Below are positions 3,632 to 29,428 of a stretch of 32,000 bases of DNA, in pieces (the stretch's first letter is position 1; each line of letters starts with the position of its first letter). The stretch comes from Candidatus Saccharimonadota bacterium (lineage in GTDB: Bacteria; Bacteroidota; Bacteroidia; Cytophagales; Amoebophilaceae), in contig NZ_OW441264.1 in assembly GCF_936981045.1 (NCBI RefSeq), positions 1,105,203-1,137,202 on the forward strand, read 5' to 3'. Made by a program: the position numbers and the translations under genes. The notes beneath the pieces were generated by a model. That model was not told the DNA's origin. It was given only the letters and a program-made list of their open reading frames with translations, and searched no databases.

Positions 3632-3870
3632 GCATCTAATAGCCATTCCTATCAAAAAGACCCTGCATTGTAGAAAATTGCAACTGGCAGGTCTACGCTG
3701 AAAGCTGAGCAGAAAATCAGTTTAATGGGGCCGCGAGGCGGCTGCTGATTTCCCAGCTTTCAGCGTAAACTTACAACAGCTTTTTGCACAGCGCTTGATT
3801 TTTTGCTTGTTTTTTGATCCAGCAAAAAGTAGCATAGCACTTCCTTTTAATCCGTCAAAAAGTAAGATCA
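3632..3870. repeat. Diverged ~240-bp member of palindromic repeat family B, with the long inner hairpin
   Basis: Same module order as rc(25099-25351): end GCATCTAATAGCC, an arm, a 13-bp perfect stem ACGCTGAAAGCTG/CAGCTTTCAGCGT (3695-3766), TTTTTGCACAGCGCTTGATTTTTT, then a second small hairpin. No target-site duplication (TSD) is visible. Confidence 0.5.
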
Positions 3871-6704: not shown

Positions 6705-6722
6705 GGTTCTGTCGCGTCTATA
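6705..6722 (+). mobile_element. Solo IS6-type terminus (IRR-like), no transposase attached
   Basis: GGTTCTGTCGCGTCTATA is identical to the outer 18 nt of the IS6 IRR end. Similarity then decays (..TTTTCGTTAGTA vs ..GTTTTCTTAGTA). Confidence 0.55.
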
Positions 6723-6749
6723 TTTTCGTTAGTAACGTCTTTTCTTTTA

Positions 6750-6991
6750 AACGTGAGTTCGGGATTATATTATTTTTTCATTTGATAATCAATATTAATA
6801 AAAATTTATAAAATTTGTTTTATAGACAGTTAAATAGGTAGTTGAATAACAAATAATTCTGATAATCAGTTTATTATATATATTATATTTATAAAATTAG
6901 ATATAAAAACTTGTTAAATAGGTGCAAATATTAACTAAATAATTGATATTAAATTGTTGTAAATCAGTCAAATAAATCCTGAACTCACGTT
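6750..6991 (+). mobile_element. AT-rich MITE family A, copy 1 (IS982-type TIRs)
   Basis: TIRs AACGTGAGTTCGGGAT ... ATCCTGAACTCACGTT. Near-identical to 29041-29281 and to the reverse complement of 11924-12165 and 21701-21932. Confidence 0.85.
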
Positions 6992-7360: not shown

Positions 7361-7377
7361 GGTTCTGTCGCGTCTAT
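7361..7377 (+). mobile_element. Solo IS6-type terminus (IRR-like)
   Basis: GGTTCTGTCGCGTCTAT is identical to the IS6 IRR end and abuts the truncated intron ORF. Confidence 0.55.
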
Positions 7378-7463: not shown

Positions 7464-7585
7464 ATGGTCAGAAATAAGATTAGAAATTTTAGTTCGGAAG
7501 AAAAGACTAAAATAGTATTCGCTTTACTAAAAGAAGATTGAACACTAGTTGAATTATCGTCCAAATAGGGAGTAACGAGTAAAAC
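7464..7585 (+). pseudogene. IS3-family OrfA-like fragment with in-frame stops
   Basis: MVRNKIRNFSSEEKTKIVFALLKED*TLVELSSK*GVTSKT resembles the HTH N-terminus of IS3 OrfA (..R.FS.EFK..IV......S..E...KYGV). It is cut by IS6 copy A. Confidence 0.4.
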
Positions 7586-8418
7586 GGTTCTGTCGCGTTT
7601 ATTCTAAAAAATGATTATTTTAGTATCGGTATTTAAAAAAGTAGTTATTATGTTTAATATTTCTCCCGAGTTATTACCATATTTTAAAGGTTATTGTTCT
7701 TCATCAGAAGTCATCCTGTTATTTGTATACATGAAGTGTCGTTTTTCCTTGAGCTATAGAGATTTGGAAGAGATGATGCGTATGAGAGGCGCAAAAGTTG
7801 ATCATTCTACGCTACAGAGATGGGTTATTAAGTTTGTTCCTCTGATAGATAAAGCAGTAAGAAAAAGAAAACGACCAGTTGGTAGTAGTTGGAGAATGGA
7901 TGAAACCTATGTTAAACTAAACGGGAAGTGGATCTATTTATATAGAGCAGTAGATCGTTATGGTGATACAGTTGACTTTTTTCTATCTGAGCATAGAGAC
8001 AAGTCTTCAACGCTTTCTTTTTTTCGAAAGGCGATCACAGAAAATAATATTCCTAAGAAAGTAGTAATTGACAAAAGCGGTAGTAATAAAGCTGCCCTTG
8101 ATGCGATCAATACAGATCTTGATCAAGATCATACCATTCAAATATTGCAAAACAAATATTTGAATAATAGAGTTGAACAAGATCATAGGTTTATCAAAAA
8201 ACGGATAAAACCTATGCTGGGTTTTAAGAATTTTTATTCTGCTTCCATTACTATTTCAGGGATAGAAAACATTCGTATGATTCAAAAAGGACAAGTAAGA
8301 GGAGCTAAAAATCATCTTTCTACTTTTGAGAACTTTGCTATCTTAATGGCCGCATAATATCCAAAATTTGACTTAAACGAAAAACCTATACTAAGAAAAC
8401 TATAGACGCGACAGAACC
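7586..8418 (+). mobile_element. IS6-family insertion sequence, copy A (833 bp)
   Basis: Termini GGTTCTGTCGCGTTTAT (IRL) and rc GGTTCTGTCGCGTCTAT (IRR), with a single DDE ORF. Flanks AGTAAAAC / CTAATGCC, so no TSD. Confidence 0.9.
7611..8357 (+). CDS. IS6 family DDE transposase (copy A)
   Basis: DDE triad context WRMDETYVK (D97), VVIDKSGSN (D154), NNRVEQDHRFIKKR (E189). The real start may be M14 (7650), by analogy with IS26 Tnp length. Confidence 0.9.
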   Translation: MIILVSVFKKVVIMFNISPELLPYFKGYCSSSEVILLFVYMKCRFSLSYRDLEEMMRMRGAKVDHSTLQRWVIKFVPLIDKAVRKRKRPVGSSWRMDETYVKLNGKWIYLYRAVDRYGDTVDFFLSEHRDKSSTLSFFRKAITENNIPKKVVIDKSGSNKAALDAINTDLDQDHTIQILQNKYLNNRVEQDHRFIKKRIKPMLGFKNFYSASITISGIENIRMIQKGQVRGAKNHLSTFENFAILMAA

Positions 8419-8453
8419 CTAATGCCAGACGTATAGTTTAGGACTTTAGCATT

Positions 8454-9317
8454 TTAAATATGCCGTTCTGCATGGTAAGAGGAACGTACAAGTGGACCTG
8501 ACTCCACATAAGAAAAGCCACGCTTGAGCGCCTCATTTTTAAAATGCGCAAATTTATCTGGATGTACGAAAGTAGCCACTTCAAGATGTTGCTTAGTAGG
8601 TTGTAGATATTGACCTAGCGTTAAAACATCCAAACCATTCTCCAGAAGGTCATCCATAACTTGATAGACCTCCGCATCTGTTTCGCCTAATCCGAGCATA
8701 ATACCCGATTTAGATCGTTTGCCATATGCTTTAATTCGTCTAAGTTGCTCTAAGCTGCGTGCATACTTAGCCTGTGGACGGACTGTTTTATACAGTCTTT
8801 CTACAGTTTCCATATTGTGAGAGACAACCTCTTGACCCGAACTAATCATCCGCTCTAGTGCCCACCAAATCGCCTTAACATCTGGAATTAAGGTTTCTAT
8901 AGTGATCGAGGGATTCAAGGCCTTGACCTCCTTAACGGTTTGATACCAAATTTCTGCGCCACAGTCCTTTAGTTCGTCTCTATTTACCGAAGTAATAACC
9001 GCATGTTTAACCCCCATTAGATGAATCGCTTGTGCAACTCGTTTCGGTTCTTCCTTATCATAAACAGTAGGTCTGCCAGTAGCTACCGCACAAAAGCCAC
9101 AACTTCGCGTGCAAATATTACCCAATATCATAAAAGTAGCCGTACCTACTCCCCAACATTCACCCATATTGGGACAGTTACCACTGGTGCAAATGGTGTG
9201 TAGCTTGTGTTGATCTACTATATCACGTACAGTGATATAGTGCTTACCTATCGGTAATTTAACCCGCAACCAATCTGGACGTTGAGTAGTTGTAGTCGGT
9301 GAGGTTTTTTGTTTCAT
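8454..9317 (-). CDS. lipA: Lipoyl synthase (radical SAM)
   Basis: N-terminal cluster CxxxxCxxxxxC ([12 protein letters not shown]) and radical-SAM CTRSCGFC. Conserved C-terminal RSSYHA. Confidence 0.95.
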
Positions 9318-9323
9318 GACAAT

Positions 9324-10156
9324 GGTTCTGTCGCGTCTATAGTTTTCTTAGTATAGGTTTTTCGTTTAAGTCAAATTTTGGATATTATGCGGCCATTAAG
9401 ATAGCAAAGTTCTCAAAAGTAGAAAGATGATTTTTAACTCCTCTTACTTGTCCTTTTTGAATCATACGAATGTTTTCTATCCCTGAAATAGTAATGGAAG
9501 CAGAATAAAAATTCTTAAAACCCAGCATAGGTTTTATCCGTTTTTTGATAAACCTATGATCTTGTTCAACTCTATTATTCAAATATTTGTTTTGCAATAT
9601 TTGAATGGTATGATCTTGATCAAGATCTGTATTGATCGCATCAAGGGCAGCTTTATTACTACCGCTTTTGTCAATTACTACTTTCTTAGGAATATTATTT
9701 TCTGTGATCGCCTTGCGAAAAAAAGAAAGCGTTGAAGACTTGTCTCTATGATCAGATAGAAAAAAGTCAACTGTATCACCATAACGATCTACTGCTCTAT
9801 ATAAATAGATCCACTTCCCGTTTAGTTTAACATAGGTTTCATCCATTCTCCAACTACTACCAACTGGTCGTTTTCTTTTTCTTACTGCTTTATCTATCAG
9901 AGGAACAAACTTAATAACCCATCTCTGTAGCGTAGAATGATCAACTCTTGCGCCTCTCATACGCATCATCTCTTCCAAATCTCTATAGCTCAAGGAAAAA
10001 CGACACTTCATGTATACAAATAACAGGATGACTTCTGATGAAGAACAATAACCTTTAAAATATGGTAATAACTCGGGAGAAATATTAAACATAATAACTA
10101 CTTTTTTAAATACCGATACTAAAATAATCATTTTTTAGAATAAACGCGACAGAACC
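9324..10156 (-). mobile_element. IS6-family insertion sequence, copy B (833 bp)
   Basis: Same termini as copy A. The IRR end lies 6 bp from the lipA ATG. The IRL end interrupts an IS982-like element. Confidence 0.9.
9385..10131 (-). CDS. IS6 family DDE transposase (copy B)
   Basis: 248 aa. Differs from copy A only at K62R, E127D and A232V. Confidence 0.9.
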   Translation of the reverse strand: MIILVSVFKKVVIMFNISPELLPYFKGYCSSSEVILLFVYMKCRFSLSYRDLEEMMRMRGARVDHSTLQRWVIKFVPLIDKAVRKRKRPVGSSWRMDETYVKLNGKWIYLYRAVDRYGDTVDFFLSDHRDKSSTLSFFRKAITENNIPKKVVIDKSGSNKAALDAINTDLDQDHTIQILQNKYLNNRVEQDHRFIKKRIKPMLGFKNFYSASITISGIENIRMIQKGQVRGVKNHLSTFENFAILMAA

Positions 10157-10280
10157 AATTTTTCTACATTCATAACTGGCTCCTTTGGATAATCTGGTTA
10201 GTATTTTTTTATCTCCAAATTTAAAACACAAAGGAGCTTTTTAAAGCTATTTTTTAACAAGCTAATCCCGAACTCAGGTT
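10157..10280 (-). mobile_element. IS982-like element, left-end fragment (IRL to codon 6 of transposase)
   Basis: rc reads AACCTGAGTTCGGGATTAGCTTG...ATGAATGTAGAAAAATT. One SNP from the copies at 21523 and 22373. Truncated by IS6 copy B. Confidence 0.8.
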
Positions 10281-10296
10281 ATATCGCAAATTGAAG

Positions 10297-11875: not shown

Positions 11876-11923
11876 GAAGATAAAGATACACCATTATACA
11901 CAACCTATCTAATCTGTTGTAGT

Positions 11924-12165
11924 AACGTGAGTTCGGGATTTATTTGACTGATTTACAACAATTTAATATCAATTATTTAGTTAATATTTGCACCTATTTA
12001 ACAAGTTTTTATATCTAATTTTATAAATATAATATATATAATAAACTGATTATCAGAATTATTTTTTATTCAACTACCTATTTAACTGTCTATAAAACAA
12101 ATTTTATAAATTTTTATTAATATTGATTTTCAAATGAAAAAATAATCTAATCCCGAACTCACGTT
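11924..12165 (-). mobile_element. AT-rich MITE family A, copy 2
   Basis: AACGTGAGTTCGGGAT ... ATCCCGAACTCACGTT. If the TIR is taken as ACGTGAG, TAGTA flanks both sides (candidate 5-bp TSD). Lies in the divergent nfo/ppa intergenic region. Confidence 0.85.
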
Positions 12166-12301
12166 AGTAGGAAAAATTTAAGCACTGGCTTAGGTTTGTT
12201 ACTAGATTGCTAGCAAATTTGTAATTTATGTATTGTCTAGCCCATTAGACGATGAGGTCTAATAGGCATATTGCTAATTATGTATTTAAATCTGAAAGGG
12301 A

Positions 12302-15680: not shown

Positions 15681-15692
15681 GGTTCTGTCGCG
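15681..15692 (+). mobile_element. 12-bp solo IS6 terminus, 9 bp outside copy C
   Basis: GGTTCTGTCGCG is followed by GGTCTTTTG, then the complete IS end. It is preceded by AACCTGAGT, a truncated IS982/MITE-A TIR. Confidence 0.5.
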
Positions 15693-15701
15693 GGTCTTTT
15701 G

Positions 15702-16534
15702 GGTTCTGTCGCGTCTATAGTTTTCTTAGTATAGGTTTTTCGTTTAAGTCAAATTTTGGATATTATGCGGCCATTAAGATAGCAAAGTTCCCAAAAGTAG
15801 AAAGATGATTTTTAGCTCCTCTTACTTGTCCTTTTTGAATCATACGAATGTTTTCTATCCCTGAAATAGTAATGGAAGCAGAATAAAAATTCTTAAAACC
15901 CAGCATAGGTTTTATCCGTTTTTTGATAAACCTATGATCTTGTTCAACTCTATTATTCAAATATTTGTTTTGCAATATTTGAATGGTATGATCTTGATCA
16001 AGATCTGTATTGATCGCATCAAGGGCAGCTTTATTACTACCGCTTTTGTCAATTACTACTTTCTTAGGAATATTATTTTCTGTGATCGCCTTGCGAAAAA
16101 AAGAAAGCGTTGAAGACTTGTCTCTATGATCAGATAGAAAAAAGTCAACTGTATCACCATAACGATCTACTGCTCTATATAAATAGATCCACTTCCCGTT
16201 TAGTTTAACATAGGTTTCATCCATTTTCCAACTACTACCAATTGGTCGTTTTCTTTTTCTTACTGCTTTATCTATCAGAGGAACAAACTTAATAACCCAT
16301 CTCTGTAGCGTAGAATGATCAACTCTTGCGCCTCTCATACGCATCATCTCTTCCAAATCTCTATAGCTCAAGGAAAAACGACACTTCATGTATACAAATA
16401 ACAGGATAACTTCTGATGAAGAACAATAACCTTTAAAATATGGTAATAACTCGGGAGAAATATTAAACATAATAACTACTTTTTTAAATACCGATACTAA
16501 AATAATCATTTTTTAGAATAAACGCGACAGAACC
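15702..16534 (-). mobile_element. IS6-family insertion sequence, copy C (833 bp)
   Basis: Same termini as the other copies. Lies head to head with copy D. Confidence 0.9.
15763..16509 (-). CDS. IS6 family DDE transposase (copy C)
   Basis: 248 aa. Shares V90I, R95K and E240G with copy D. Confidence 0.9.
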   Translation of the reverse strand: MIILVSVFKKVVIMFNISPELLPYFKGYCSSSEVILLFVYMKCRFSLSYRDLEEMMRMRGARVDHSTLQRWVIKFVPLIDKAVRKRKRPIGSSWKMDETYVKLNGKWIYLYRAVDRYGDTVDFFLSDHRDKSSTLSFFRKAITENNIPKKVVIDKSGSNKAALDAINTDLDQDHTIQILQNKYLNNRVEQDHRFIKKRIKPMLGFKNFYSASITISGIENIRMIQKGQVRGAKNHLSTFGNFAILMAA

Positions 16535-16701
16535 GTTCCATTCGGGTTAAGGCGACCAAACTTAGAGACGATTTCTTGAGAACCAGGCAAGCGAACTGAG
16601 AAGCCATCTCCAGCAATAACTCTATAACCTCTCCATGTTCCATATGAGGTATCACCTTGATAAGCTGTTTGAAGGCTTAAATTCAATAATTCTTTAAATC
16701 C
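16535..16701 (-). pseudogene. IS4-family-like transposase internal fragment
   Basis: The minus strand reads GFKELLNLSLQTAYQGDTSYGTWRGYRVIAGDGFSVRLPGSQEIVSKFGRLNPNG. This resembles the W.G.R..A.DGS...LP first-D region of IS4-type DDE transposases. Confidence 0.35.
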
Positions 16702-17534
16702 GGTTCTGTCGCGTTTATTCTAAAAAATGATTATTTTAGTATCGATATTTAAAAAAGTAGTTATTATGTTTAATATTTCTCCCGAGTTATTACCATATTT
16801 TAAAGGTTATTGTTCTTCATCAGAAGTCATCCTGTTATTTGTATACATGAAGTGTCGTTTTTCCTTGAGCTATAGAGATTTGGAAGAGATGATGCGTATG
16901 AGAGGCGCAAGAGTTGATCATTCTACGCTACAGAGATGGGTTATTAAGTTTGTTCCTCTGATAGATAAAGCAGTAAGAAAAAGAAAACGACCAATTGGTA
17001 GTAGTTGGAAAATGGATGAAACCTATGTTAAACTAAACGGGAAGTGGATCTATTTATATAGAGCAGTAGATCGTTATGGTGATACAGTTGACTTTTTTCT
17101 ATCTGATCATAGAGACAAGTCTTCAACGCTTTCTTTTTTTCGCAAGGCGATCACAGAAAATAATATTCCTAAGAAAGTAGTAATTGACAAAAGCGGTAGT
17201 AATAAAGCTGCCCTTGATGCGATCAATACAGATCTTGATCAAGATCATACCATTCAAATATTGCAAAACAAATATTTGAATAATAGAGTTGAACAAGATC
17301 ATAGGTTTATCAAAAAACGGATAAAACCTATGCTGGGTTTTAAGAATTTTTATTCTGCTTCCATTACTATTTCAGGGATAGAAAACATTCGTATGATTCA
17401 AAAAGGACAAGTAAGAGGAGCTAAAAATCATCTTTCTACTTTTGGGAACTTTGCTATCTTAATGGCCGCATAATATCCAAAATTTGACTTAAACGAAAAA
17501 CCTATACTAAGAAAACTATAGACGCGACAGAACC
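16702..17534 (+). mobile_element. IS6-family insertion sequence, copy D (833 bp)
   Basis: Same termini as the other copies. The IRR end lies 27 bp upstream of the next gene's ATG. Confidence 0.9.
16727..17473 (+). CDS. IS6 family DDE transposase (copy D)
   Basis: 248 aa. V7I is shared with copy E. V90I/R95K/E240G are shared with copy C. Confidence 0.9.
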   Translation: MIILVSIFKKVVIMFNISPELLPYFKGYCSSSEVILLFVYMKCRFSLSYRDLEEMMRMRGARVDHSTLQRWVIKFVPLIDKAVRKRKRPIGSSWKMDETYVKLNGKWIYLYRAVDRYGDTVDFFLSDHRDKSSTLSFFRKAITENNIPKKVVIDKSGSNKAALDAINTDLDQDHTIQILQNKYLNNRVEQDHRFIKKRIKPMLGFKNFYSASITISGIENIRMIQKGQVRGAKNHLSTFGNFAILMAA

Positions 17535-17561
17535 GATCTTATTTCACTTTATTTTTTTGCC

Positions 17562-18779
17562 ATGTCCAATCCATTACCACCTTCCACTTCTGGCACGCAC
17601 AGATGGGCTAGTAGCGATTTACAGGTAGCTACTGAAGTAGTACATGCTGGTGTTAGTCCAGAATCACATACCGGTGCCATTCTTACACCTATTTTTCAAT
17701 CATCCGTATTTGTACAAGAATCAATTGAAACCTATCTAGCAAAGGGGCATTCCTATTCTGGTTCAAGAAATCCTACTGTTGCAGTACTTGAAGCCAAGAT
17801 TGCTACTTTGGAAAAAGCACAAACTGCCTATTGTTTTGGTTCAGGGGTGGCTGCCATTGTCACGACCATGGCAACTTTTTTACGCCATAGGGACCACTGT
17901 ATACTCTCAAATAGTTGTTATGCCACTACACAAGAAGTGGCACGTGACCTTTTTGGCCAACTTGGCGTAACCTGTTCTTTTGTAGATTTTACCAATCTAG
18001 CTGTAATAGAAGCTGCCATACAACCCAATACGAAAGTACTTTTTTCAGAGTATCCGACCAATCCAACGCTTACTTTAACCGATTTAGCTGCGGTTAGTAC
18101 ATTGGCCCAGCAAGTAGGTGCGAAACATGTTTGTGATAGTACACTGGCCTCGCCTATGGTGATTTGTCCATTAACATTTGGTGCAGATATAGTGATTCAA
18201 TCTACCACTAAATACTATGACGGACATAATATGACTATTGGTGGCGCAGCAGCTTGTGCATCTGCAGAAGATGGTCTTTCAATTTTTTCTTATAGGAATA
18301 GGCATGGGAGTATTATGAGTCCTATGGTTGCCTTTTTGACCTTACAATCTATCAAGACCATGCACTTACGCATACGGGAACAGTCTATAAATGCCGCGCA
18401 GATTGCCATATTTTTAGCAGGACATGCTAAGGTAGCAAAGGTGGGGTATCCGGGATTGGCGGATTTTCCGCAAAAATCATTGGCAGATAGACAACATAGT
18501 AATGGGCTACATGGTGGTATGTTATACTTTGTACTGAAAGGAGGAGCGGATGCAAGCAGCAAATTTATGAAGGCACTGCGTCGTCCATGGAGTTTTGGTG
18601 CCAATTTAGGTGGAGTAGAGAGTTTGATTACTTATCCTGCTGTAATGTCTAATGGGACAATGGATGCTATACAACTTCAATCCATTGGTATAAGCGAGGG
18701 TTTTGTACGCGTATCTTGTGGGATTGAAGATATCCAAGATCTTATTGATGCACTTGAAGCAACCTTTAATGCATGCTAA
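17562..18779 (+). CDS. PLP-dependent Cys/Met metabolism enzyme (cystathionine gamma-synthase / beta-lyase / methionine gamma-lyase family)
   Basis: VHAG....TGAILTPIFQSS.F, SGSRNPT, FGSGVAAI, YPTNPTL, and the PLP-lysine block QSTTKYYDGHNMTIGG. The exact subfamily cannot be assigned by eye. Confidence 0.85.
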   Translation: MSNPLPPSTSGTHRWASSDLQVATEVVHAGVSPESHTGAILTPIFQSSVFVQESIETYLAKGHSYSGSRNPTVAVLEAKIATLEKAQTAYCFGSGVAAIVTTMATFLRHRDHCILSNSCYATTQEVARDLFGQLGVTCSFVDFTNLAVIEAAIQPNTKVLFSEYPTNPTLTLTDLAAVSTLAQQVGAKHVCDSTLASPMVICPLTFGADIVIQSTTKYYDGHNMTIGGAAACASAEDGLSIFSYRNRHGSIMSPMVAFLTLQSIKTMHLRIREQSINAAQIAIFLAGHAKVAKVGYPGLADFPQKSLADRQHSNGLHGGMLYFVLKGGADASSKFMKALRRPWSFGANLGGVESLITYPAVMSNGTMDAIQLQSIGISEGFVRVSCGIEDIQDLIDALEATFNAC

Positions 18780-18787
18780 AAGAGATG

Positions 18788-19620
18788 GGTTCTGTCGCGT
18801 CTATAGTTTTCTTAGTATAGGTTTTTCGTTTAAGTCAAATTTTGGATATTATGCGGCCATTAAGATAGCAAAGTTCTCAAAAGTAGAAAGATGATTTTTA
18901 GCTCCTCTTACTTGTCCTTTTTGAATCATACGAATGTTTTCTATCCCTGAAATAGTAATGGAAGCAGAATAAAAATTCTTAAAACCCAGCATAGGTTTTA
19001 TCCGTTTTTTGATAAACCTATGATCTTGTTCAACTCTATTATTCAAATATTTGTTTTGCAATATTTGAATGGTATGATCTTGATCAAGATCTGTATTGAT
19101 CGCATCAAGGGCAGCTTTATTACTACCGCTTTTGTCAATTACTACTTTCTTAGGAATATTATTTTCTGTGATCGCCTTGCGAAAAAAAGAAAGCGTTGAA
19201 GACTTGTCTCTATGATCAGATAGAAAAAAGTCAACTGTATCACCATAACGATCTACTGCTCTATATAAATAGATCCACTTCCCGTTTAGTTTAACATAGG
19301 TTTCATCCATTCTCCAACTACTACCAACTGGTCGTTTTCTTTTTCTTACTGCTTTATCTATCAGAGGAACAAACTTAATAACCCATCTCTGTAGCGTAGA
19401 ATGATCAACTCTTGCGCCTCTCATACGCATCATCTCTTCCAAATCTCTATAGCTCAAGGAAAAACGACACTTCATGTATACAAATAACAGGATGACTTCT
19501 GATGAAGAACAATAACCTTTAAAATATGGTAATAACTCGGGAGAAATATTAAACATAATAACTACTTTTTTAAATATCGATACTAAAATAATCATTTTTT
19601 AGAATAAACGCGACAGAACC
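18788..19620 (-). mobile_element. IS6-family insertion sequence, copy E (833 bp)
   Basis: Same termini as the other copies. The IRR end lies 8 bp after the PLP-enzyme stop. The IRL end cuts a group II intron ORF. Confidence 0.9.
18849..19595 (-). CDS. IS6 family DDE transposase (copy E)
   Basis: 248 aa, with an intact DDE context. Confidence 0.9.
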   Translation of the reverse strand: MIILVSIFKKVVIMFNISPELLPYFKGYCSSSEVILLFVYMKCRFSLSYRDLEEMMRMRGARVDHSTLQRWVIKFVPLIDKAVRKRKRPVGSSWRMDETYVKLNGKWIYLYRAVDRYGDTVDFFLSDHRDKSSTLSFFRKAITENNIPKKVVIDKSGSNKAALDAINTDLDQDHTIQILQNKYLNNRVEQDHRFIKKRIKPMLGFKNFYSASITISGIENIRMIQKGQVRGAKNHLSTFENFAILMAA

Positions 19621-19865
19621 GCTTCACTCGCATTCGTATGTTTAAAATAGTTAACCCATCGTAACACTACTGTTTTATTTGCTCGATGAATGCTTGAGAT
19701 TTGATTGGTGCTCTTCTACAAGTCAGGTATTTTAGTCTATTACGGATGCTTTGTTGGGATTGTTTCGTTGGAAATACATAAATGCTATTTCTGCCACTTG
19801 TTGGACTCTTTCTTTTTGGGGTCCCCTCAGAAAAAGGAAAATAAAGCACGTTAAGGAGCTGCTAA
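19621..19865 (-). pseudogene. Group II intron RT/maturase internal fragment, second copy, frameshifted
   Basis: ..VLYFPFSEGTPKRKSPTSGRNSIYVFPTKQSQQSIRNRLKYLTCRRAPIKSQAFIEQIK, then a 1-nt deletion relative to 7290-7300 (CCAGTA -> CAGTA). Overlaps copy 1 by about 110 bp with several SNPs. Confidence 0.55.
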
Positions 19866-19970
19866 TATTCTTATCCGCCTAAATTTCCTTAGATATGGTA
19901 CTTTTATTAAAAGTGAGTTTGTGTTATATAGCCAACGAAATTGAAAGTGTTATATATTTATTGAACAATA

Positions 19971-20548
19971 TTATTGATTATCATAGATATTAATATATCT
20001 ATAAAAACTTGCTCTAGACATTTTTAATGTTTTACAGATATCATTAATGGCCATACCATGATTCTTGTGCATGTTTTTAGCCATCAATACTTTAGGATCT
20101 GTAGAGGATACTTTTTTTCGGCCACCTTGCTTGCCACGCGCTTGTGCTGCTCTAAACCTGCTCGCGTTCGTTCCTGGACAAGACGGCGTTCGAATTGCGT
20201 TAAAGAGGAAAAGATATTGAAGATTAACTCTCCAGAAGCGGTTGTCGTATCAATAGCCCCGTCACACAAGAATCTAAATCCAATACCTTTTTGACATAAG
20301 TGTTCAATAAGATGAACTAAATGAGGCATCGAGCGACCAAGCCGATCTAATCGCCAGACTAATAGGGTATCACCCGAAGTTAAACTGGCCAAACATTTCT
20401 TTAACCCTGGACGTTCCGCTTTAGCACCTGAGATTTTTTCTATAAAAATCATATTTGTTGCAGAACCTGCTTTTGCAAGCGCGTCAACTTGAGGATGCAC
20501 TTCCTGATCTTGGGTGCTGACTCTGACATAGCCAACTAATTTTGCCAT
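19971..20548 (-). pseudogene. tnpR: Serine recombinase / Tn3-type resolvase with a 1-nt frameshift
   Basis: The N-terminus YVRVSTQDQ carries the catalytic Ser. After ..RTRAGLE the frame is lost near 20148-20152. The shifted frame continues AAQARGKQGGRKKVSSTDPKVLMAKNMHKNHGMAINDICKTLKMSRASFYRYINIYDNQ* (HTH domain). Confidence 0.8.
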
Positions 20549-20838
20549 ATTTTCTTAAAAATACTAAAAAAAATGAGTTTATAGTATTTTTTTTTTTACG
20601 ATCGCAATATGATACAACTAATGAGCTATTTTAGGAGGCTGTTTTAGGTGTCTCAATAAACGCTCGTTTGTTAAGATAAATCTATTCGCAAAATAGGGAA
20701 GCTTATTCAGGAATCTATAATGAATTTAGGGATGCAGTAGAAATTATAATTTTTGGCTGATTTTGTCCCTCTATTCCTAGTTGGTCAATTTGATATCAGT
20801 TGAGAAACCTTATTCCAGTATATTTAATCAAACTAAAC

Positions 20839-21522
20839 ATGCCACGCCGCTCAATCCTTTCTACCATTGATCGTGAAACTCTTCTGGCACTTCCAGATGA
20901 CAAAGAAACACTGATCCAGTATTATACGTTGGATACTCATGACTTATCTGTTATCCATCACCATCGTGGTTCGGCTAATCGACTGGGTTTCGCTGTACAA
21001 CTTTTTTACTTGCGATTTCCTGGCATCATTTTGGGAGTTGGTGAGCGCCCGTCTAACACCTTATTGCAAATAGTTGCATCTCAACTGAAGATTTCAGAAG
21101 AAAATTGGAATAAGTATGGTAAGAGCGAACAGACAAGAAGGGATCATTTGATTGATTTACAAGTTATTTTTAGATTTAAACCTTTCAAGATGAGTCACTA
21201 TAGAGAATCGTTGGATACCTTAACGGAGTTAGCCCTTCAGACAGACAAAGGGATCATTTTGGCCAGCTTGTTGATCGAAACTCTTCGGAAAAAGAGCATA
21301 ATCCTGCCAGTTATAAACGCTATAGACCGAATTTGCTCAGAATCTGTATCTCGTGCTAACCGGCGTATTTATGCATCGTTAACTGATTCTTTACTGCCAT
21401 CTCATCTCCTTCGTTTGGATGAACTGCTAAAGCGCAAAGAGGAGAGTAAAATGACTTGGCTGTCTTGGTTACGGAAATCTCCATCCAAGCCGAATTCACG
21501 TCATATGCTCGAACATATTAAT
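20839..21522 (+). pseudogene. tnpA: Tn3-family transposase, N-terminal ~228 aa only (DUF4158 region)
   Basis: MPRRSILSTIDRETLLALPDDKETLIQYYTLDTHDLSVIHHHRGSANRLGFAVQLFYLRFPG is the typical Tn3 TnpA N-terminus. The ORF is cut by the IS982-like IRL at 21523. It is divergent from tnpR. Confidence 0.8.
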
Positions 21523-21700
21523 AACCTAAGTTCGGGATTAGCTTGTTAAAAAATAGCTTTAAAAAGCTCCTTTGTGTTTTAAATTTGGAGATAAAAAAAT
21601 ACTAACCAGATTATCCAAAGGAGCCAGTTATGAATGTAGAAAAATTAGTTGAAATATATTATGCTGTTGATGAATTTTTCATAAAGTTTATGCCGTATAT
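21523..21700 (+). mobile_element. IS982-like element, left-end fragment (IRL to codon 24)
   Basis: AACCTAAGTTCGGGATTAGCTTG... ATG AAT GTA GAA.. up to ..CCGTATAT, then MITE-A copy 3. It is a perfect inverted copy of 22196-22373. Confidence 0.8.
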
Positions 21701-21932
21701 ACGTGAGTTCGGGATTTATTTAATTGATTTACAAAAATTTAATATCAATTATTTAGTTAATATTTGCACCTATTTAACAAGTTTTTATATCTAATTTTAT
21801 AAATATAATAAACTGATTATCAGAATTATTTATTATTCAACTACCTATTTAACTGTCTATAAAACAAATTTTATAAATTTTTATTAATATTGATTATCAA
21901 ATGAAAAAATAATCTAATCCCGAACTCACGTT
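21701..21932 (-). mobile_element. AT-rich MITE family A, copy 3 (232 bp, small internal deletion)
   Basis: ACGTGAGTTCGGGAT ... ATCCCGAACTCACGTT. It joins two oppositely oriented IS982-like fragments. Confidence 0.85.
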
Positions 21933-22266
21933 AATAACCTGTTTTTGTTTTAGAAAGACTTTGTGTAAAACAGTACAAGGGAACTAACGTTCTTTGGATC
22001 AGTTCTATAAATCTATTCTAGCTTACTAACTTTCCAAATTTACTAGAATGAAATTGCTGTAAATGAATATAATAAGACTTAAAATTTCTAAAACCAATCA
22101 CATGAAAGGCAATAAGAACAGTCATTATTTCACCCAAAGTTAATGAACAAGTTCTAGTGGGTTTTCTTTTAGAGTTGGTTAACAGTTGTTTTTCCATATA
22201 CGGCATAAACTTTATGAAAAATTCATCAACAGCATAATATATTTCAACTAATTTTTCTACATTCAT
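21933..22266 (-). pseudogene. IS982 family transposase, N-terminal fragment with in-frame stop
   Basis: MNVEKLVEIYYAVDEFFIKFMPYMEKQLL...LTLGEIMTVLIAFHVIGFRNFKSYY...FGKLVS*NRFIELIQRTLVPLYCFTQSLSKTKTGY. TAG at 22015-22017 sits where the family has Tyr. No DDE region is present. Confidence 0.7.
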
Positions 22267-22373
22267 AACTGGCTCCTTTGGATAATCTGGTTAGTATTTT
22301 TTTATCTCCAAATTTAAAACACAAAGGAGCTTTTTAAAGCTATTTTTTAACAAGCTAATCCCGAACTTAGGTT
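21933..22373 (-). mobile_element. IS982-like element, left ~440 bp (IRL plus 5' third of transposase)
   Basis: IRL at 22373 (rc AACCTAAGTTCGGGATTAGC). The 3' side is cut by MITE-A copy 3. Confidence 0.8.
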
Positions 22374-22424
22374 ATAAGCATGATGCAAGTCTATGTAGGC
22401 TATAGAGATTGATCTTGAGGTAAG

Positions 22425-23153
22425 GTGATAAAAATCTATAATGATATAGGGGTTTCTAAAGAAAGTGCGCAGCATTGTTTATATAGCCTAAAGTTTTATA
22501 TACCTAAAAGTTATTCAGTAGAGTATGTTTCTGCGTTAGAAATTATAGAAGGGAATGGGCTTGAAGGTACCCGTTTGTTCATTCTGCCAGGAGGAAGAGA
22601 TCTCTGTTATATAGAAAGCTTAGCAGGTAAAGGTAACAAACGCATACAAGATTATGTGTCAGGTGGTGGCAACTTTCTAGGAATCTGTGCAGGTGGTTAT
22701 TATAGTGGGACATATGTAGTGTTTGCGGAAGCTACCCCAATTGAGGTAGTAGGTCCCAGAGCGCTTGGTTTATTTCAAGGCGTCGTAAAGGGACCCGTAT
22801 TAGCGCCCTATTATTATGGATCGCATAAAGGCGCATCTGCTGCACGTGTTCTAATCACTTATAGTACAGATGAAAAAGATTGTTATGTCTATTATAATGG
22901 TGGAGGCTATTTTGTTGATGCGGAAAACATAACAGATACAGTAGTCATAGCTGGTTATACAAATGGAAAAGCAGCTATAATCAAGTGCAGTTATGGTCTA
23001 GGTAGCGTAGTTTTAAGCGGTGTCCACCTGGAGTATGATCCTTGTATGATGCAACACCAAGCCCTTAAGCATATTCGGAACACCTTAAAGCAGTATAATG
23101 AACAAAGAGTGAAGCTGTTTAAACATATATTGGCCCTATTGTCCGTTGGGTAA
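22425..23153 (+). CDS. Stand-alone BPL_N domain protein (biotin-protein-ligase N-terminal, GATase1-like fold)
   Basis: IKIYND.GVSKESAQHCLYSL......Y.V..V.A..I........LFILPGGRDLCY...L.G.GN.RIQDYV..GGNFLGICAGGYY matches the BPL_N pattern. There is no catalytic BirA domain. GTG start. Confidence 0.65.
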   Translation: MIKIYNDIGVSKESAQHCLYSLKFYIPKSYSVEYVSALEIIEGNGLEGTRLFILPGGRDLCYIESLAGKGNKRIQDYVSGGGNFLGICAGGYYSGTYVVFAEATPIEVVGPRALGLFQGVVKGPVLAPYYYGSHKGASAARVLITYSTDEKDCYVYYNGGGYFVDAENITDTVVIAGYTNGKAAIIKCSYGLGSVVLSGVHLEYDPCMMQHQALKHIRNTLKQYNEQRVKLFKHILALLSVG

Positions 23154-24437: not shown

Positions 24438-25094
24438 TTAGCTTGATCGTAAGTGTGGTCGTTGCATTGAAATATGTGCTATAATGGTTTTGATGAATTC
24501 AGAAATATCATCCTCCTCTTGATTGATCTGAAGATAGGGACATAGTTTCAGTTGGAGCGCTTGCTTGTAAGCCTGTTTAATGGATTCAAAGCGCTTTTGG
24601 GACATTTGATCAAATGAGTCCTGCTTGTTTCTGATCTGGTTGCGCGATTGGAAGCTATTAAAGCCGATATCACAGTATATACATAGATCTGGTATTAAGC
24701 CAGAAAAAATACGGTGCATTGTTAAAAAGGGCTCCCAATAATCAGGTTTATGCGTTAGTTGATAGGCTATAGTAGAAAAAATAAATCGATCGAATATGAT
24801 TACATCTACATCAGCTACCAATGCTTCTTTGTAGATCAGTTCATGGCGTGCTGCTAAAAAGAGAAAGAATTCTGTAATAGGATGGGCATCTTTATTTTTA
24901 AGGGCTAAGATGGTTTCCCAAATCACTTCCGAATTTTTACTCCCTTTAGGGTCGTGTAGCAACTTTACACGATAAGATTGATTGGTTAAGATAGATTGGA
25001 TTTGGTGCGCCAAAGTCGTTTTCCCAGAAAAGTCTACGCCTTCAATAACTAGAATAAATTGGTCACGTCGTTTACGGTTTATTAAATGTCCCAT
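24438..25094 (-). CDS. tmk: dTMP (thymidylate) kinase-like
   Basis: P-loop IEGVDFSGKTT, DRFIFSTIAYQ (the DR..S..AYQ motif), about 218 aa. Confidence 0.75.
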   Translation of the reverse strand: MGHLINRKRRDQFILVIEGVDFSGKTTLAHQIQSILTNQSYRVKLLHDPKGSKNSEVIWETILALKNKDAHPITEFFLFLAARHELIYKEALVADVDVIIFDRFIFSTIAYQLTHKPDYWEPFLTMHRIFSGLIPDLCIYCDIGFNSFQSRNQIRNKQDSFDQMSQKRFESIKQAYKQALQLKLCPYLQINQEEDDISEFIKTIIAHISMQRPHLRSS

Positions 25095-25098
25095 ATAC

Positions 25099-25351
25099 GT
25101 ATCTGTTCAAGTCAGTGGTAAAAAAGGCATTTATATCACACTTTTTTCTTGATAAAGAAGTGTGCGAAAAATCAAGCCCTGTGCAAAAAGTTGCTACAAT
25201 CCCCCCTTACAGCTGGAAAAACAGAAGCGACCCTGTGGCCTTCATTAAACTGTTTTTTTGATCAGCTGCAAGGTATGCTTTCTGATTGCAACTTTTTACA
25301 AGGGGCGTTTTTTATTTTTTTCGTAGCATGGCCATACCGCTGAATAGATAC
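25099..25351 (-). mobile_element. Palindromic MITE family B, full-length 253-bp copy with 8-bp TSD
   Basis: TIRs GTATCTGTTCAA / rc GTATCTATTCAG. The direct repeat CCATATAC occurs at 25091-25098 and 25352-25359. The interior holds nested hairpins. Confidence 0.8.
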
Positions 25352-29040: not shown

Positions 29041-29281
29041 AACCTAAGTTCGGGATAGATTATTTTTTCATTTGATAATCAATATCAATAAAAATTTATA
29101 AAATTTATTTTATAGACAGTTAAATAGGTAGTTGAATAACAAATAATTCTGGTAATCAGTTTATTATATATATTATATTTATAAAATTAGATATAAAAAC
29201 TTGTTAAATAGGTGCAAATATTAACTAAATAATTGATATTAAATTGTTGTAAATCAGTCAAATAAACCCCGAACTCACGTT
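29041..29281 (+). mobile_element. AT-rich MITE family A, copy 4
   Basis: AACCTAAGTTCGGGATAG ... ACCCCGAACTCACGTT. Lies 76 bp upstream of the htpG ATG. Confidence 0.85.
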
Positions 29282-29428
29282 AGTAGTGAACTTTCTAGCT
29301 TTTACGCAACCTTACTAGCTATTGAGCGACAAAAACCATGCCAATGTATCATACACATGCTTTTATGACAGCCTATCTATTTGGGGGGATTATAAAATGC
29401 TGTTATCCAATCTATGACCTGATTGGTC

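Follow-up and report, generated by a model that had tools for sequence, protein, structure and literature searches.

An old Cardinium core gene between two young ISCca2 copies, with candidate read-out from the insertion sequence

[quoted passage not shown] The gene lies in the window, i.e. the whole stretch of 32,000 nucleotides that was analysed, at 17562-18779 (+) and encodes an intact PLP-dependent enzyme of 405 aa from the eukaryote-derived cystathionine gamma-lyase (CGL) lineage, with the catalytic Lys217. An earlier note on this DNA had correctly guessed a reduced Bacteroidota symbiont, which is Cardinium, and had proposed the bracketed gene as a candidate for IS6-mediated acquisition, mobilisation or IS-driven expression.

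Results

Two units of the same topology

The published cOegib genome harbours 109 copies of ISCca2, 43 of them intact, and consists of mobile DNA to 29.6% (PMC9769881). Five copies, each of 833 bp and each with an intact tnp, fall within the window; they differ pairwise by 2-7 nt and are young and active. As delimited by terminal repeats and length, copy A occupies 7586-8418 (+) and copy B 9324-10156 (−). Copy C (15702-16534, −) forms an IRL-to-IRL inverted pair with copy D (16702-17534, +), which directs its IRR end towards the start of cgl, and copy E (18788-19620, −) is convergent with cgl with its IRR inward. At the ISCca2 termini 16 of the first 18 positions match, the first 13 of them contiguously, including a 12-bp perfect repeat (GGTTCTGTCGCG). 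D and E both turn inward the end located downstream of the transposase stop (AAGAAAACTATAGACGCGACAGAACC), which hence is the IRR. The terminal-repeat orientation thereby agrees with the earlier description of D as co-directional and upstream, E as convergent and both inward ends as IRR.

The 235-aa product of the tnp of copy D (16766-17473, as in the NCBI annotation) carries the NCBI name IS6 family transposase, from the same organism. The ISCca2 transposase matches NF033587 at 234 bits (cut-off 125), which bears out the family named in the earlier note, and PF13610 with E = 1.4e-42. The elements of the window correspond to ISCca2 of PMC9769881 and belong to the IS6 family. Comparing the flanks by eye, we found no 8-bp target-site duplications, direct or reverse-complement, within or between the five copies. 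Recombination among numerous copies would be expected to leave none, and their absence does not exclude the IS6 family assignment. The IRR 19-mer had a sole match across the searched genome contigs, a chance one inside a Flavitalea gene, and none in the metagenomes searched.

Only short spacers separate cgl from the two copies. The 27 bp between the end of D at 17534 and the ATG at 17562 (17535-17561, +, GATCTTATTTCACTTTATTTTTTTGCC) are native flank, and homology to five relatives begins here; the 8 bp between the stop, which ends at 18779, and the start of E at 18788 (18780-18787, AAGAGATG) form the 3' spacer. All of these coordinates had been given correctly before. As the earlier note had also recognized, the same topology recurs in mirror image around lipA at 7586-10156, where A (+) is followed by a 35-bp gap, lipA (8454-9317, −), a 6-bp gap and B (−). 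Both IRR ends again point inward, and B is upstream of lipA and co-directional with it.

We compared this geometry with a uniform random placement of 109 ISCca2 copies in the chromosome of 1,137,202 bp (~1.137 Mb), in which about 12 copies would be expected to have another copy no more than 1.25 kb away. An inverted orientation, seen in three of the four pairs of neighbouring IS copies in the window, is nothing remarkable. Thus, the IS-cgl-IS arrangement itself is not beyond chance, while the close spacing at all four junctions (6, 8, 27 and 35 bp from the CDS boundaries) is somewhat unusual.

On their outer sides D and E border on other mobile DNA. The 167 bp between C and D (16535-16701, −) hold an open 55-codon fragment with a weak match to an IS4-family transposase (NF033592, E = 0.0025) and have no match in the cgl loci of relatives; being IS4-like, this remnant is not native cgl flank. 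Beyond E lies a Tn3-family remnant (19621-21549). It comprises a frameshifted resolvase, with its N-terminal domain at 20084-20548 (−, PF00239) and its HTH_7 domain near 19975-20090 in another frame, and a DUF4158 tnpA fragment at 20800-21549 (+, PF13700). The resolvase remnant is 86% identical to a Cardinium plasmid recombinase. A plasmid origin of cgl was considered and rejected, as matches to Cardinium plasmids (82-86%) are confined to the IS6 and resolvase pieces and do not include cgl.

Descent of the cgl gene

The 405-aa protein is 100% identical to one recorded for the O. gibbosus Cardinium as a trans-sulfuration enzyme family protein. Cardinium from Nabis, Philonthus and Encarsia and several MAGs, i.e. 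every Cardinium lineage sampled, have intact orthologues with 82-90% identity, and Amoebophilaceae-level relatives carry intact orthologues at 65-68%. For all pairs dN/dS is 0.09-0.18, although this purifying selection over whole branches is no proof of expression since the insertions, the IS copies being much younger than the cgl divergence. With a GC of 0.42 and a GC3 of 0.29 the gene is inside the host-gene range. Together with the published finding that cgl is universally conserved in Cardinium and a core gene (PMC6232779), these comparisons indicate that it is old, vertically inherited and part of the Cardinium core. The earlier view of an accessory function does not hold for a gene with orthologues in all lineages sampled.

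Outside the Amoebophilaceae the nearest relatives of the protein are protist eukaryotes at ~50-56% identity, which answers the question of a non-Bacteroidota nearest neighbour. The eukaryotic origin is ancient and has been described before: Santos-Garcia et al. reported in 2014 that an ancestor received the gene from a eukaryote (PMC4007549), and the eukaryote-like affinity is reproduced here in both protein and structure-chain matches. The Cardinium cgl described there, intact in cEper1 and a pseudogene in cBtQ1 (CHV_c0068), is the orthologue of the cOegib gene with the same affinity; the cEper1 protein is 82% identical to that of cOegib. This ancient transfer, the dN/dS values, the composition and the orthologues in relatives without adjacent IS6 refute IS6-mediated acquisition.

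Breakpoints of synteny at the two insertion sequences

Homology to the relatives spans 17533/17543 to 18780 of the window and nothing beyond, ending 1-3 nt past the cgl stop. Since it stops at the two IS ends, the ancestral synteny breaks there. The ancestral neighbours are GH25 upstream, kept in three lineages including the closest relative (90% identity), and mscS(−)-uvrA(+) downstream, likewise kept in three lineages. The cEper1 locus reads engB(−), cgl, mscS(−), uvrA without an insertion sequence. No transposase is among the called neighbours in the relatives' loci examined and no IS6 adjoins a cgl orthologue there; the synteny check proposed earlier yields GH25 and mscS-uvrA as neighbours. 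In cOegib mscS is absent from the window, and its orthologue is found elsewhere on the same chromosome (P0130), so the cgl-mscS linkage was broken by rearrangement and not by deletion. ISCca2 copies thus mark both breakpoints of the lost synteny. Only in this weak sense does the idea of mobilisation find support.

Two IS6 copies with intact tnp that flank one passenger at 27 and 8 bp, in a topology that recurs at lipA, might suggest an IS6 composite (pseudo-compound) transposon or translocatable unit which acquired or mobilises the cgl cassette. We consider this highly improbable. Neither the unit nor any single copy is flanked by an 8-bp duplication, nor is there a reverse-complement one as from intramolecular inversion, and the outer flanks (TTAAATCC versus GCTTCACT) do not match. 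As D (+) and E (−) are inverted, the directly oriented copies needed for an IS26-type translocatable unit are absent, and the circular IS-gene unit envisaged in the earlier note is unable to form by D-E recombination. Moreover, cgl is ancestral, keeps native flanks, matches the host in composition and is IS-free in all relatives. Nor are D and E fresh duplicates: a duplication of D into E was rejected, as the two differ at three positions and C is closer to D.

The preferred reading of an islanded core gene involves only ordinary events. ISCca2 would have arrived by insertion, and by recombination or intramolecular transposition among 109 near-identical copies. These events would have severed cgl from GH25 upstream and from mscS and uvrA downstream, so that the native DNA left over amounts to 27 bp upstream of the ATG and no more than 8 bp downstream of the stop, with copy D displacing a conserved upstream block and aiming its IRR at cgl. 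The D/E pair is no functional transposon, and recombination between its members would only invert the segment. This mode of rearrangement, like the IS-dependent transcription of cgl, is what we infer from the layout of the locus.

The distance between lipA and cgl in cOegib is 8 kb. An ancestral lipA-cgl operon split by insertion sequences was considered and rejected: lipA adjoins cgl in one Amoebophilaceae MAG, but in none of the examined Cardinium loci and in neither of two further relatives. The proximity in cOegib is therefore not demonstrably ancestral. Metagenome relatives of lipA are all at ≤78% identity and not Cardinium, and are of no use for its synteny. If birA is counted as well, two out of three examined relative lineages have one of these genes (lipA or birA) beside cgl.

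Transcription of cgl

Three of the four aligned relatives share a conserved block (TATTTTTTTAAnTTG) ~50-65 nt upstream of cgl. In cOegib it is replaced by copy D, and nothing native remains upstream of about -25. Between the tnp stop and the cgl ATG lie 88 nt that contain no terminator and are unstructured (MFE -6.9 kcal/mol, z = +0.95). As D has removed the native block and its IRR faces cgl, ISCca2 IRR read-out appears the likeliest source of cgl expression, either by read-through from tnp or from a promoter that would lie in the 3' part of the insertion sequence. This part contains a perfect Bacteroidetes-type -7 box (TACTTTTG) at 17437, whose -33 partner is a poor match; our Bacteroidetes -33/-7 scan gave no convincing full promoter, hybrid or internal. 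A sigma-70 scan found no outward-facing promoter and fewer matches than in shuffles, and Rfam returned no riboswitch or other RNA. In the mirror unit the ATG of lipA, fixed by its conserved N-terminus, is only 6 nt from the IRR of B, too close for lipA to have its own promoter in between. Judged by this arrangement, lipA appears to depend on B in the same way as cgl on D.

The bracketing could instead be incidental and without regulatory effect, with cgl using a minimal promoter or a leaderless start in the retained 27 bp. The ~12 close neighbours expected by chance and the high proportion of mobile DNA (PMC9769881) are consistent with this, and the 27 bp are the best-conserved upstream part in relatives (TTTCACTTTATTTTTTTTG), where they match the Bacteroidetes -7 motif at 7 of 8 positions. 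Against it, 27 bp are too short to accommodate a start site in addition to the two promoter elements, cOegib has a changed TA in the TATATTTC-like box, the -33 position is IS sequence without TTG, and lipA retains only 6 nt. On this evidence we regard an effect-free bracketing as unlikely. Read-out from D would nevertheless not imply a refined design: if ISCca2 reads through its IRR, E sends antisense into cgl across 8 bp, and the layout therefore looks incidental, not optimised.

Antisense transcription from the convergent E could also have contributed to a recent silencing of cgl by the IS insertions, which would make it a nascent pseudogene still without disruptions. The pseudogene CHV_c0068 in cBtQ1 (PMC4007549) sets a precedent, and pairwise dN/dS is slightly higher with cOegib than without. 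At otherwise fixed sites cOegib has nine lineage-specific replacements, including G110R, M96V and F138C, versus three in the closest relative, an excess that is not significant (p = 0.15). The open reading frame is of full length and retains the PLP-binding Y65, Y120, Asp, K217 and R383, and lipA, which has the same IS configuration, is intact as well. Silencing thus seems to us more doubtful still than bracketing without effect.

Enzyme family and active site

The match to PF01053 extends over positions 2-380 of the 381 in the model (E = 1.4e-106), in accordance with the PLP-dependent enzyme of Cys/Met metabolism proposed earlier, and the conserved residues include K217, the PLP-binding Asp, Y120 and R383. 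None of the NCBIfam equivalogs was reached, be it a CGL, CGS, CBL or MGL model, the best giving 328 bits against a cut-off of 513. The best solved homologue is Toxoplasma gondii CGL (7NL1), with 394 bits and E = 8.8e-117 over residues 24-401, whereas the other solved chains, including the best bacterial one, reach at most 263 bits. The published phylogeny agrees with CGL as the nearest characterised homologue (PMC4007549).

The residues that coordinate cystathionine are replaced: A347 stands for E339 of the human enzyme (E359 in TgCGL), E125 for R119 and G67 for R62 (R80 in TgCGL). The human numbering was cross-checked against the TgCGL alignment. A347, E125 and G67 occur in 20 of 20 members of the Cardinium/Amoebophilaceae clade, one with H at the R119 position, and E/R/R is kept in 100 of 100 eukaryote-type neighbours. 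The whole bacterial clade has swapped the residues that specify cystathionine binding. The roles of E339/E359, R119 and R62/R80 are described in PMC10053738 and PMC7293657. Mutations at R119 and E339 convert human CGL into an enzyme that degrades methionine or cyst(e)ine. With TgCGL (7NL1; PMC10053738) the cOegib protein shares the Schiff-base motif QSTTKYYDGHN as well as N360, R395 and Y133 (N348, R383 and Y120 here). In contrast, R80, which binds the PLP phosphate and the substrate, corresponds to G67, E359, described as CGL-specific, to A347, and YGGTNR to YATTQE.

A bolder joint reading, tentative and on balance unlikely to hold as a whole, is that the clade enzyme was re-tooled away from cystathionine after the transfer from a eukaryote (R62G, R119E, E339A) and that cgl and lipA were rewired to ISCca2 read-out. 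Judging from the active-site residues, a re-tooled enzyme may perform other sulfur chemistry, e.g. as a Cys/Hcy/Met desulfhydrase, possibly in cofactor sulfur insertion; the latter link is suggested by the lipA or birA neighbours of cgl in relatives. As every Cardinium annotation says CGL, CBL or MetB, the more original lead lies in the changed active-site signature.

Discussion

Compared with cEper1, whose cgl locus is without an insertion sequence, the cOegib gene has lost its ancestral neighbours and sits between two ISCca2 copies. Units of this appearance are familiar from IS26 and other IS6-family elements, which form pseudo-compound transposons such as IS26-aphA1a-IS26 and Tn4352 and often lack target-site duplications after IS-IS recombination. 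The cOegib unit resembles them in that ~0.8-kb IS6-family elements with short terminal repeats surround a passenger. It differs in that the copies are inverted with their IRR inward and the gene they enclose is native to the chromosome and still has flanking bases of its own, and the window and the relatives' loci examined give no sign of the cgl unit existing or moving elsewhere.

Promoters supplied by insertion sequences are likewise well known, e.g. the IS257/IS431 hybrid promoter for dfrA in Tn4003, the -35 boxes of IS26 and the IS elements upstream of cfiA in Bacteroides fragilis. As in these cases, an IS end is placed directly upstream and co-directional, and the gene's own promoter region is displaced. 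Unlike them, the ISCca2 end shows no recognisable outward promoter, and the genes concerned serve housekeeping or cofactor functions in an endosymbiont and not resistance.

The locus reveals no new kind of mobile element and no recent gene acquisition. It illustrates how IS proliferation reshapes a host-restricted genome, in which core genes become single-gene islands and native control regions are replaced by IS ends. If ISCca2 read-out into cgl and lipA is true, retained metabolism would depend on active transposon transcription, which would bear on how genomes tolerate 30% mobile DNA. If the joint reading with a re-tooled enzyme is true as well, selfish elements in a decaying symbiont genome would have taken on the role of promoters for the core metabolism that it retains.

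ISCca2 copies around cgl and lipA

The five ISCca2 copies of the window, A (7586-8418, + strand), B (9324-10156, −), C (15702-16534, −), D (16702-17534, +) and E (18788-19620, −), are each 833 bp long, have identical 12-bp termini and differ from one another at 2-7 positions. NCBI lists their 235-aa IS6 transposases under the organism that the window comes from, and the copies are genuine members of the IS6 family. The gaps of 27 bp and 8 bp that the earlier note had described between cgl (17562-18779) and copies D and E are exact in window coordinates, as is the inward orientation of the IRR (the IS end downstream of the transposase stop codon) on both sides. Its statement that the lipA unit mirrors this arrangement also holds, as we found a mirror-image topology: with the lipA start placed by the conserved N-terminus, the IRR of B ends 6 nt before the ATG and that of A lies 35 nt past the stop codon.

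The cOegib genome is manually curated and consists to 29.6% of mobile DNA, with 300 IS elements including 109 of ISCca2 (43 intact), and 169 copies of a MITE of ~240 bp (PMC9769881). Under uniform placement of 109 copies in 1.137 Mb, ~12 ISCca2 copies are expected to have a neighbour at ≤1.25 kb, and the IS orientation patterns within the window are unremarkable. The sole oddity, a mildly unusual one, is that 4/4 IS-gene junctions lie ≤35 bp from a CDS boundary. In this published and curated genome, the layout is an ordinary outcome of saturation with IS elements.

Further repeats accompany these elements. The 10 nt outside the IRL (the opposite IS end) are alike in A, C and E (GTTTTACTCG, GTTCCATTCG and GCTTCACTCG in outward reading; 7576-7585, 16535-16544 and 19621-19630), where a repeat search lengthened the IS arms by ~10 nt, while B and D are without such similarity; this could reflect target preference or shared history. 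Solo ISCca2 terminal repeats, namely a bare 12-mer 9 bp beyond the IRR of copy C (15681-15692) and, upstream of copy A, two IRR-type ends that belong to no complete element (6705-6716, 7361-7372), are likely leftovers of truncated copies or adjacent deletions. Repeat families of roughly 110-250 bp with 94-98% identity in both orientations (6740-6991, 11920-12175, 21701-21937 and 29056-29285; also 10153-10283, 21514-21700 and 22196-22382) are probably MITECca01/02 of the cOegib genome (PMC9769881). Among GTDB species-representative genomes the ISCca2 IRR 19-mer is matched exactly just once, inside an ORF of 957 aa in a Flavitalea MAG (L009:4719-4737); it is a chance match, and no further similarity to the window was found there.

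Descent of cgl

The proposal that cgl was acquired or carried by IS6 elements is refuted by its orthologues, the IS-free loci of relatives, dN/dS and composition. Orthologues of 82-90% identity occur in Cardinium of Nabis, Philonthus and Encarsia and in several MAGs, and of 65-68% identity in Amoebophilaceae-level relatives; among called neighbours, no transposase lies beside cgl in any of eight distinct relative contexts. Three Cardinium lineages have the downstream order cgl / mscS(−) / uvrA(+) in common, and a GH25 gene lies upstream of cgl in three Cardinium lineages including the closest relative (90% identity). Pairwise dN/dS is 0.09-0.18, GC (0.42) and GC3 (0.29) are in line with host genes, and the gene has been described as universally conserved in Cardinium (PMC6232779).

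The anticipated non-Bacteroidota nearest neighbour is real. Outside the Amoebophilaceae clade the next 100 matches are protist-type (50-56% identity), and among solved structures Toxoplasma gondii CGL ranks first (TgCGL; 394 bits), the top bacterial chain reaching 263 bits. This foreign affinity stems from an ancient, already published transfer that is independent of ISCca2.

As to gene neighbourhood, lipA immediately precedes the cgl-like gene on the same strand in one Amoebophilaceae MAG (L007:8675-11221), and a birA-type biotin-protein ligase gene is divergent beside that of a freshwater relative (L093:2839-5166; also L094, L095). In the window, lipA (8454-9317) lies 8 kb upstream of cgl and a BPL_N-domain ORF (22425-23153) 3.6 kb downstream. 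The proximity may point to some loose tie with cofactor metabolism, or may be coincidence.

Rearrangement around copies D and E

Nucleotide homology to relatives starts at 17533-17543 and ends at ~18780, halting at both IS ends, with no ancestral flank beyond the D/E pair. To the left, an open fragment of 167 bp, with a weak match to an IS4-family transposase, is wedged between C and D; to the right lies a Tn3-family remnant with a frameshifted resolvase. The mscS orthologue (P0130) is absent from the window and retained elsewhere on the same chromosome, so the linkage was lost by rearrangement, not deletion. Mobilisation of cgl, as suggested earlier, stands only in the sense of IS-mediated rearrangement, homology ending at the IS ends, and not as cassette carriage.

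Intramolecular inversion-type transposition would leave a reverse-complement duplication and naturally give two IRR-inward copies. Neither an 8-bp target duplication nor a reverse-complement duplication was found at any of the five ISCca2 copies. D has fewer differences from C than the 3 that separate it from E, which rules D and E out as a fresh pair. The most economical history would combine insertion with recurrent events among many near-identical copies, either homologous recombination or intramolecular ones. Given the inverted orientation of D and E, a crossover between the two flips the segment and releases no circle; a screen for circular translocatable units should be negative.

In the remnant, the two resolvase domains (N-terminal and HTH_7) lie in different frames (19975-20548, −) beside a DUF4158 fragment (Tn3 transposase N-terminal; 20800-21549, +), presumably the lone degraded Tn3-family element ISCca15 listed for the cOegib genome. 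The resolvase DNA is 86% identical to a dust-mite Cardinium plasmid. Just downstream of cgl, two relatives (L010:2020-2242, L005:11234-11375) have a dispersed intergenic repeat (73-83% identity) that also occurs three times in the window, away from cgl (25078-25351, 3703-3846, 1068-1175); E occupies the spot where it begins in relatives.

Expression of cgl and lipA

In relatives a conserved block, TATTTTTTTAAnTTG, lies about 50-65 nt before the cgl ATG and a conserved stretch, CCTATATTTCACTTTATTTTTTTTG, adjoins the start codon. In cOegib everything upstream of about −25 is replaced by D. Between the transposase stop codon (17473) and the cgl ATG we found neither a terminator-like site nor an Rfam element, and the RNA forms no stable fold (MFE −6.9 kcal/mol, z = +0.95). 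A perfect Bacteroidetes-type −7 motif, TACTTTTG, lies at 17437 inside the transposase end and is missing a good −33 partner. IS-driven expression of cgl, as the earlier note had proposed, is plausible, and we lean slightly towards read-out from the ISCca2 IRR as the likeliest expression source for both genes. The case is stronger for lipA, as 6 nt is too short for a promoter. Outward IRR transcription would also have E feed antisense transcripts into cgl.

The insertions are so recent that the intact cgl ORF is no proof of continued expression. In Cgl of cOegib, 9 sites that are otherwise fixed show private replacements, versus 3 in the closest relative, an excess that is not significant (p = 0.15) but is compatible with mild relaxation. 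Private changes include M96V, G110R, G118S, F138C and V230A, which affect positions invariant in other Cardinium and the Amoebophilaceae MAG.

Active-site residues of Cgl

Cgl is a full-length PF01053 protein that keeps the Schiff-base lysine and PLP-anchoring residues and reaches no NCBIfam equivalog threshold. An alignment of its 120 best matches splits sharply in two at CGL positions. At human CGL R62/G116/N118/R119/E339, numbered on what we take to be the human sequence and consistent with the computed TgCGL alignment, every one of the 20 sequences from the Cardinium/Amoebophilaceae clade (P0001-P0020) has G/T/Q/E/A, apart from one K or E at N118 and one H at R119, whereas all 100 eukaryote-type neighbours (P0021-P0120) have R/G/N/R/E, with Q at N118 in one. 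The cOegib residues are G67, T122, Q124, E125 and A347.

In TgCGL, R80 (human R62) contacts the PLP phosphate and ligands, and E359 (human E339) is described as a residue that CGLs alone conserve and as key to substrate orientation (PMC10053738). Human CGL coordinates cystathionine through E59, S63 and E339, and E59N/R119L/E339V turns it into a methionine gamma-lyase (PMC7293657). The positions altered in the clade thus include cystathionine- or PLP-phosphate-binding residues, mutation of which gives Met or Cys lyases in the human enzyme. Given this clade-wide replacement, phylogeny is the only basis for the label 'cystathionine gamma-lyase', and the residue pattern suggests that substrate preference changed in the clade after the ancient transfer.

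Discussion

The D-cgl-E unit has the outline of an IS26-type pseudo-compound transposon and nothing more: as such it fails, since it shows no duplication, its passenger is native, its IS copies are inverted and a second context was not found. The influence that ISCca2 likely has on expression of cgl and lipA would fall into the well-known class of IS-supplied transcription. Two leads come out of the unit, a regulatory prediction of modest interest and, as a by-product, a hint about enzyme specificity.
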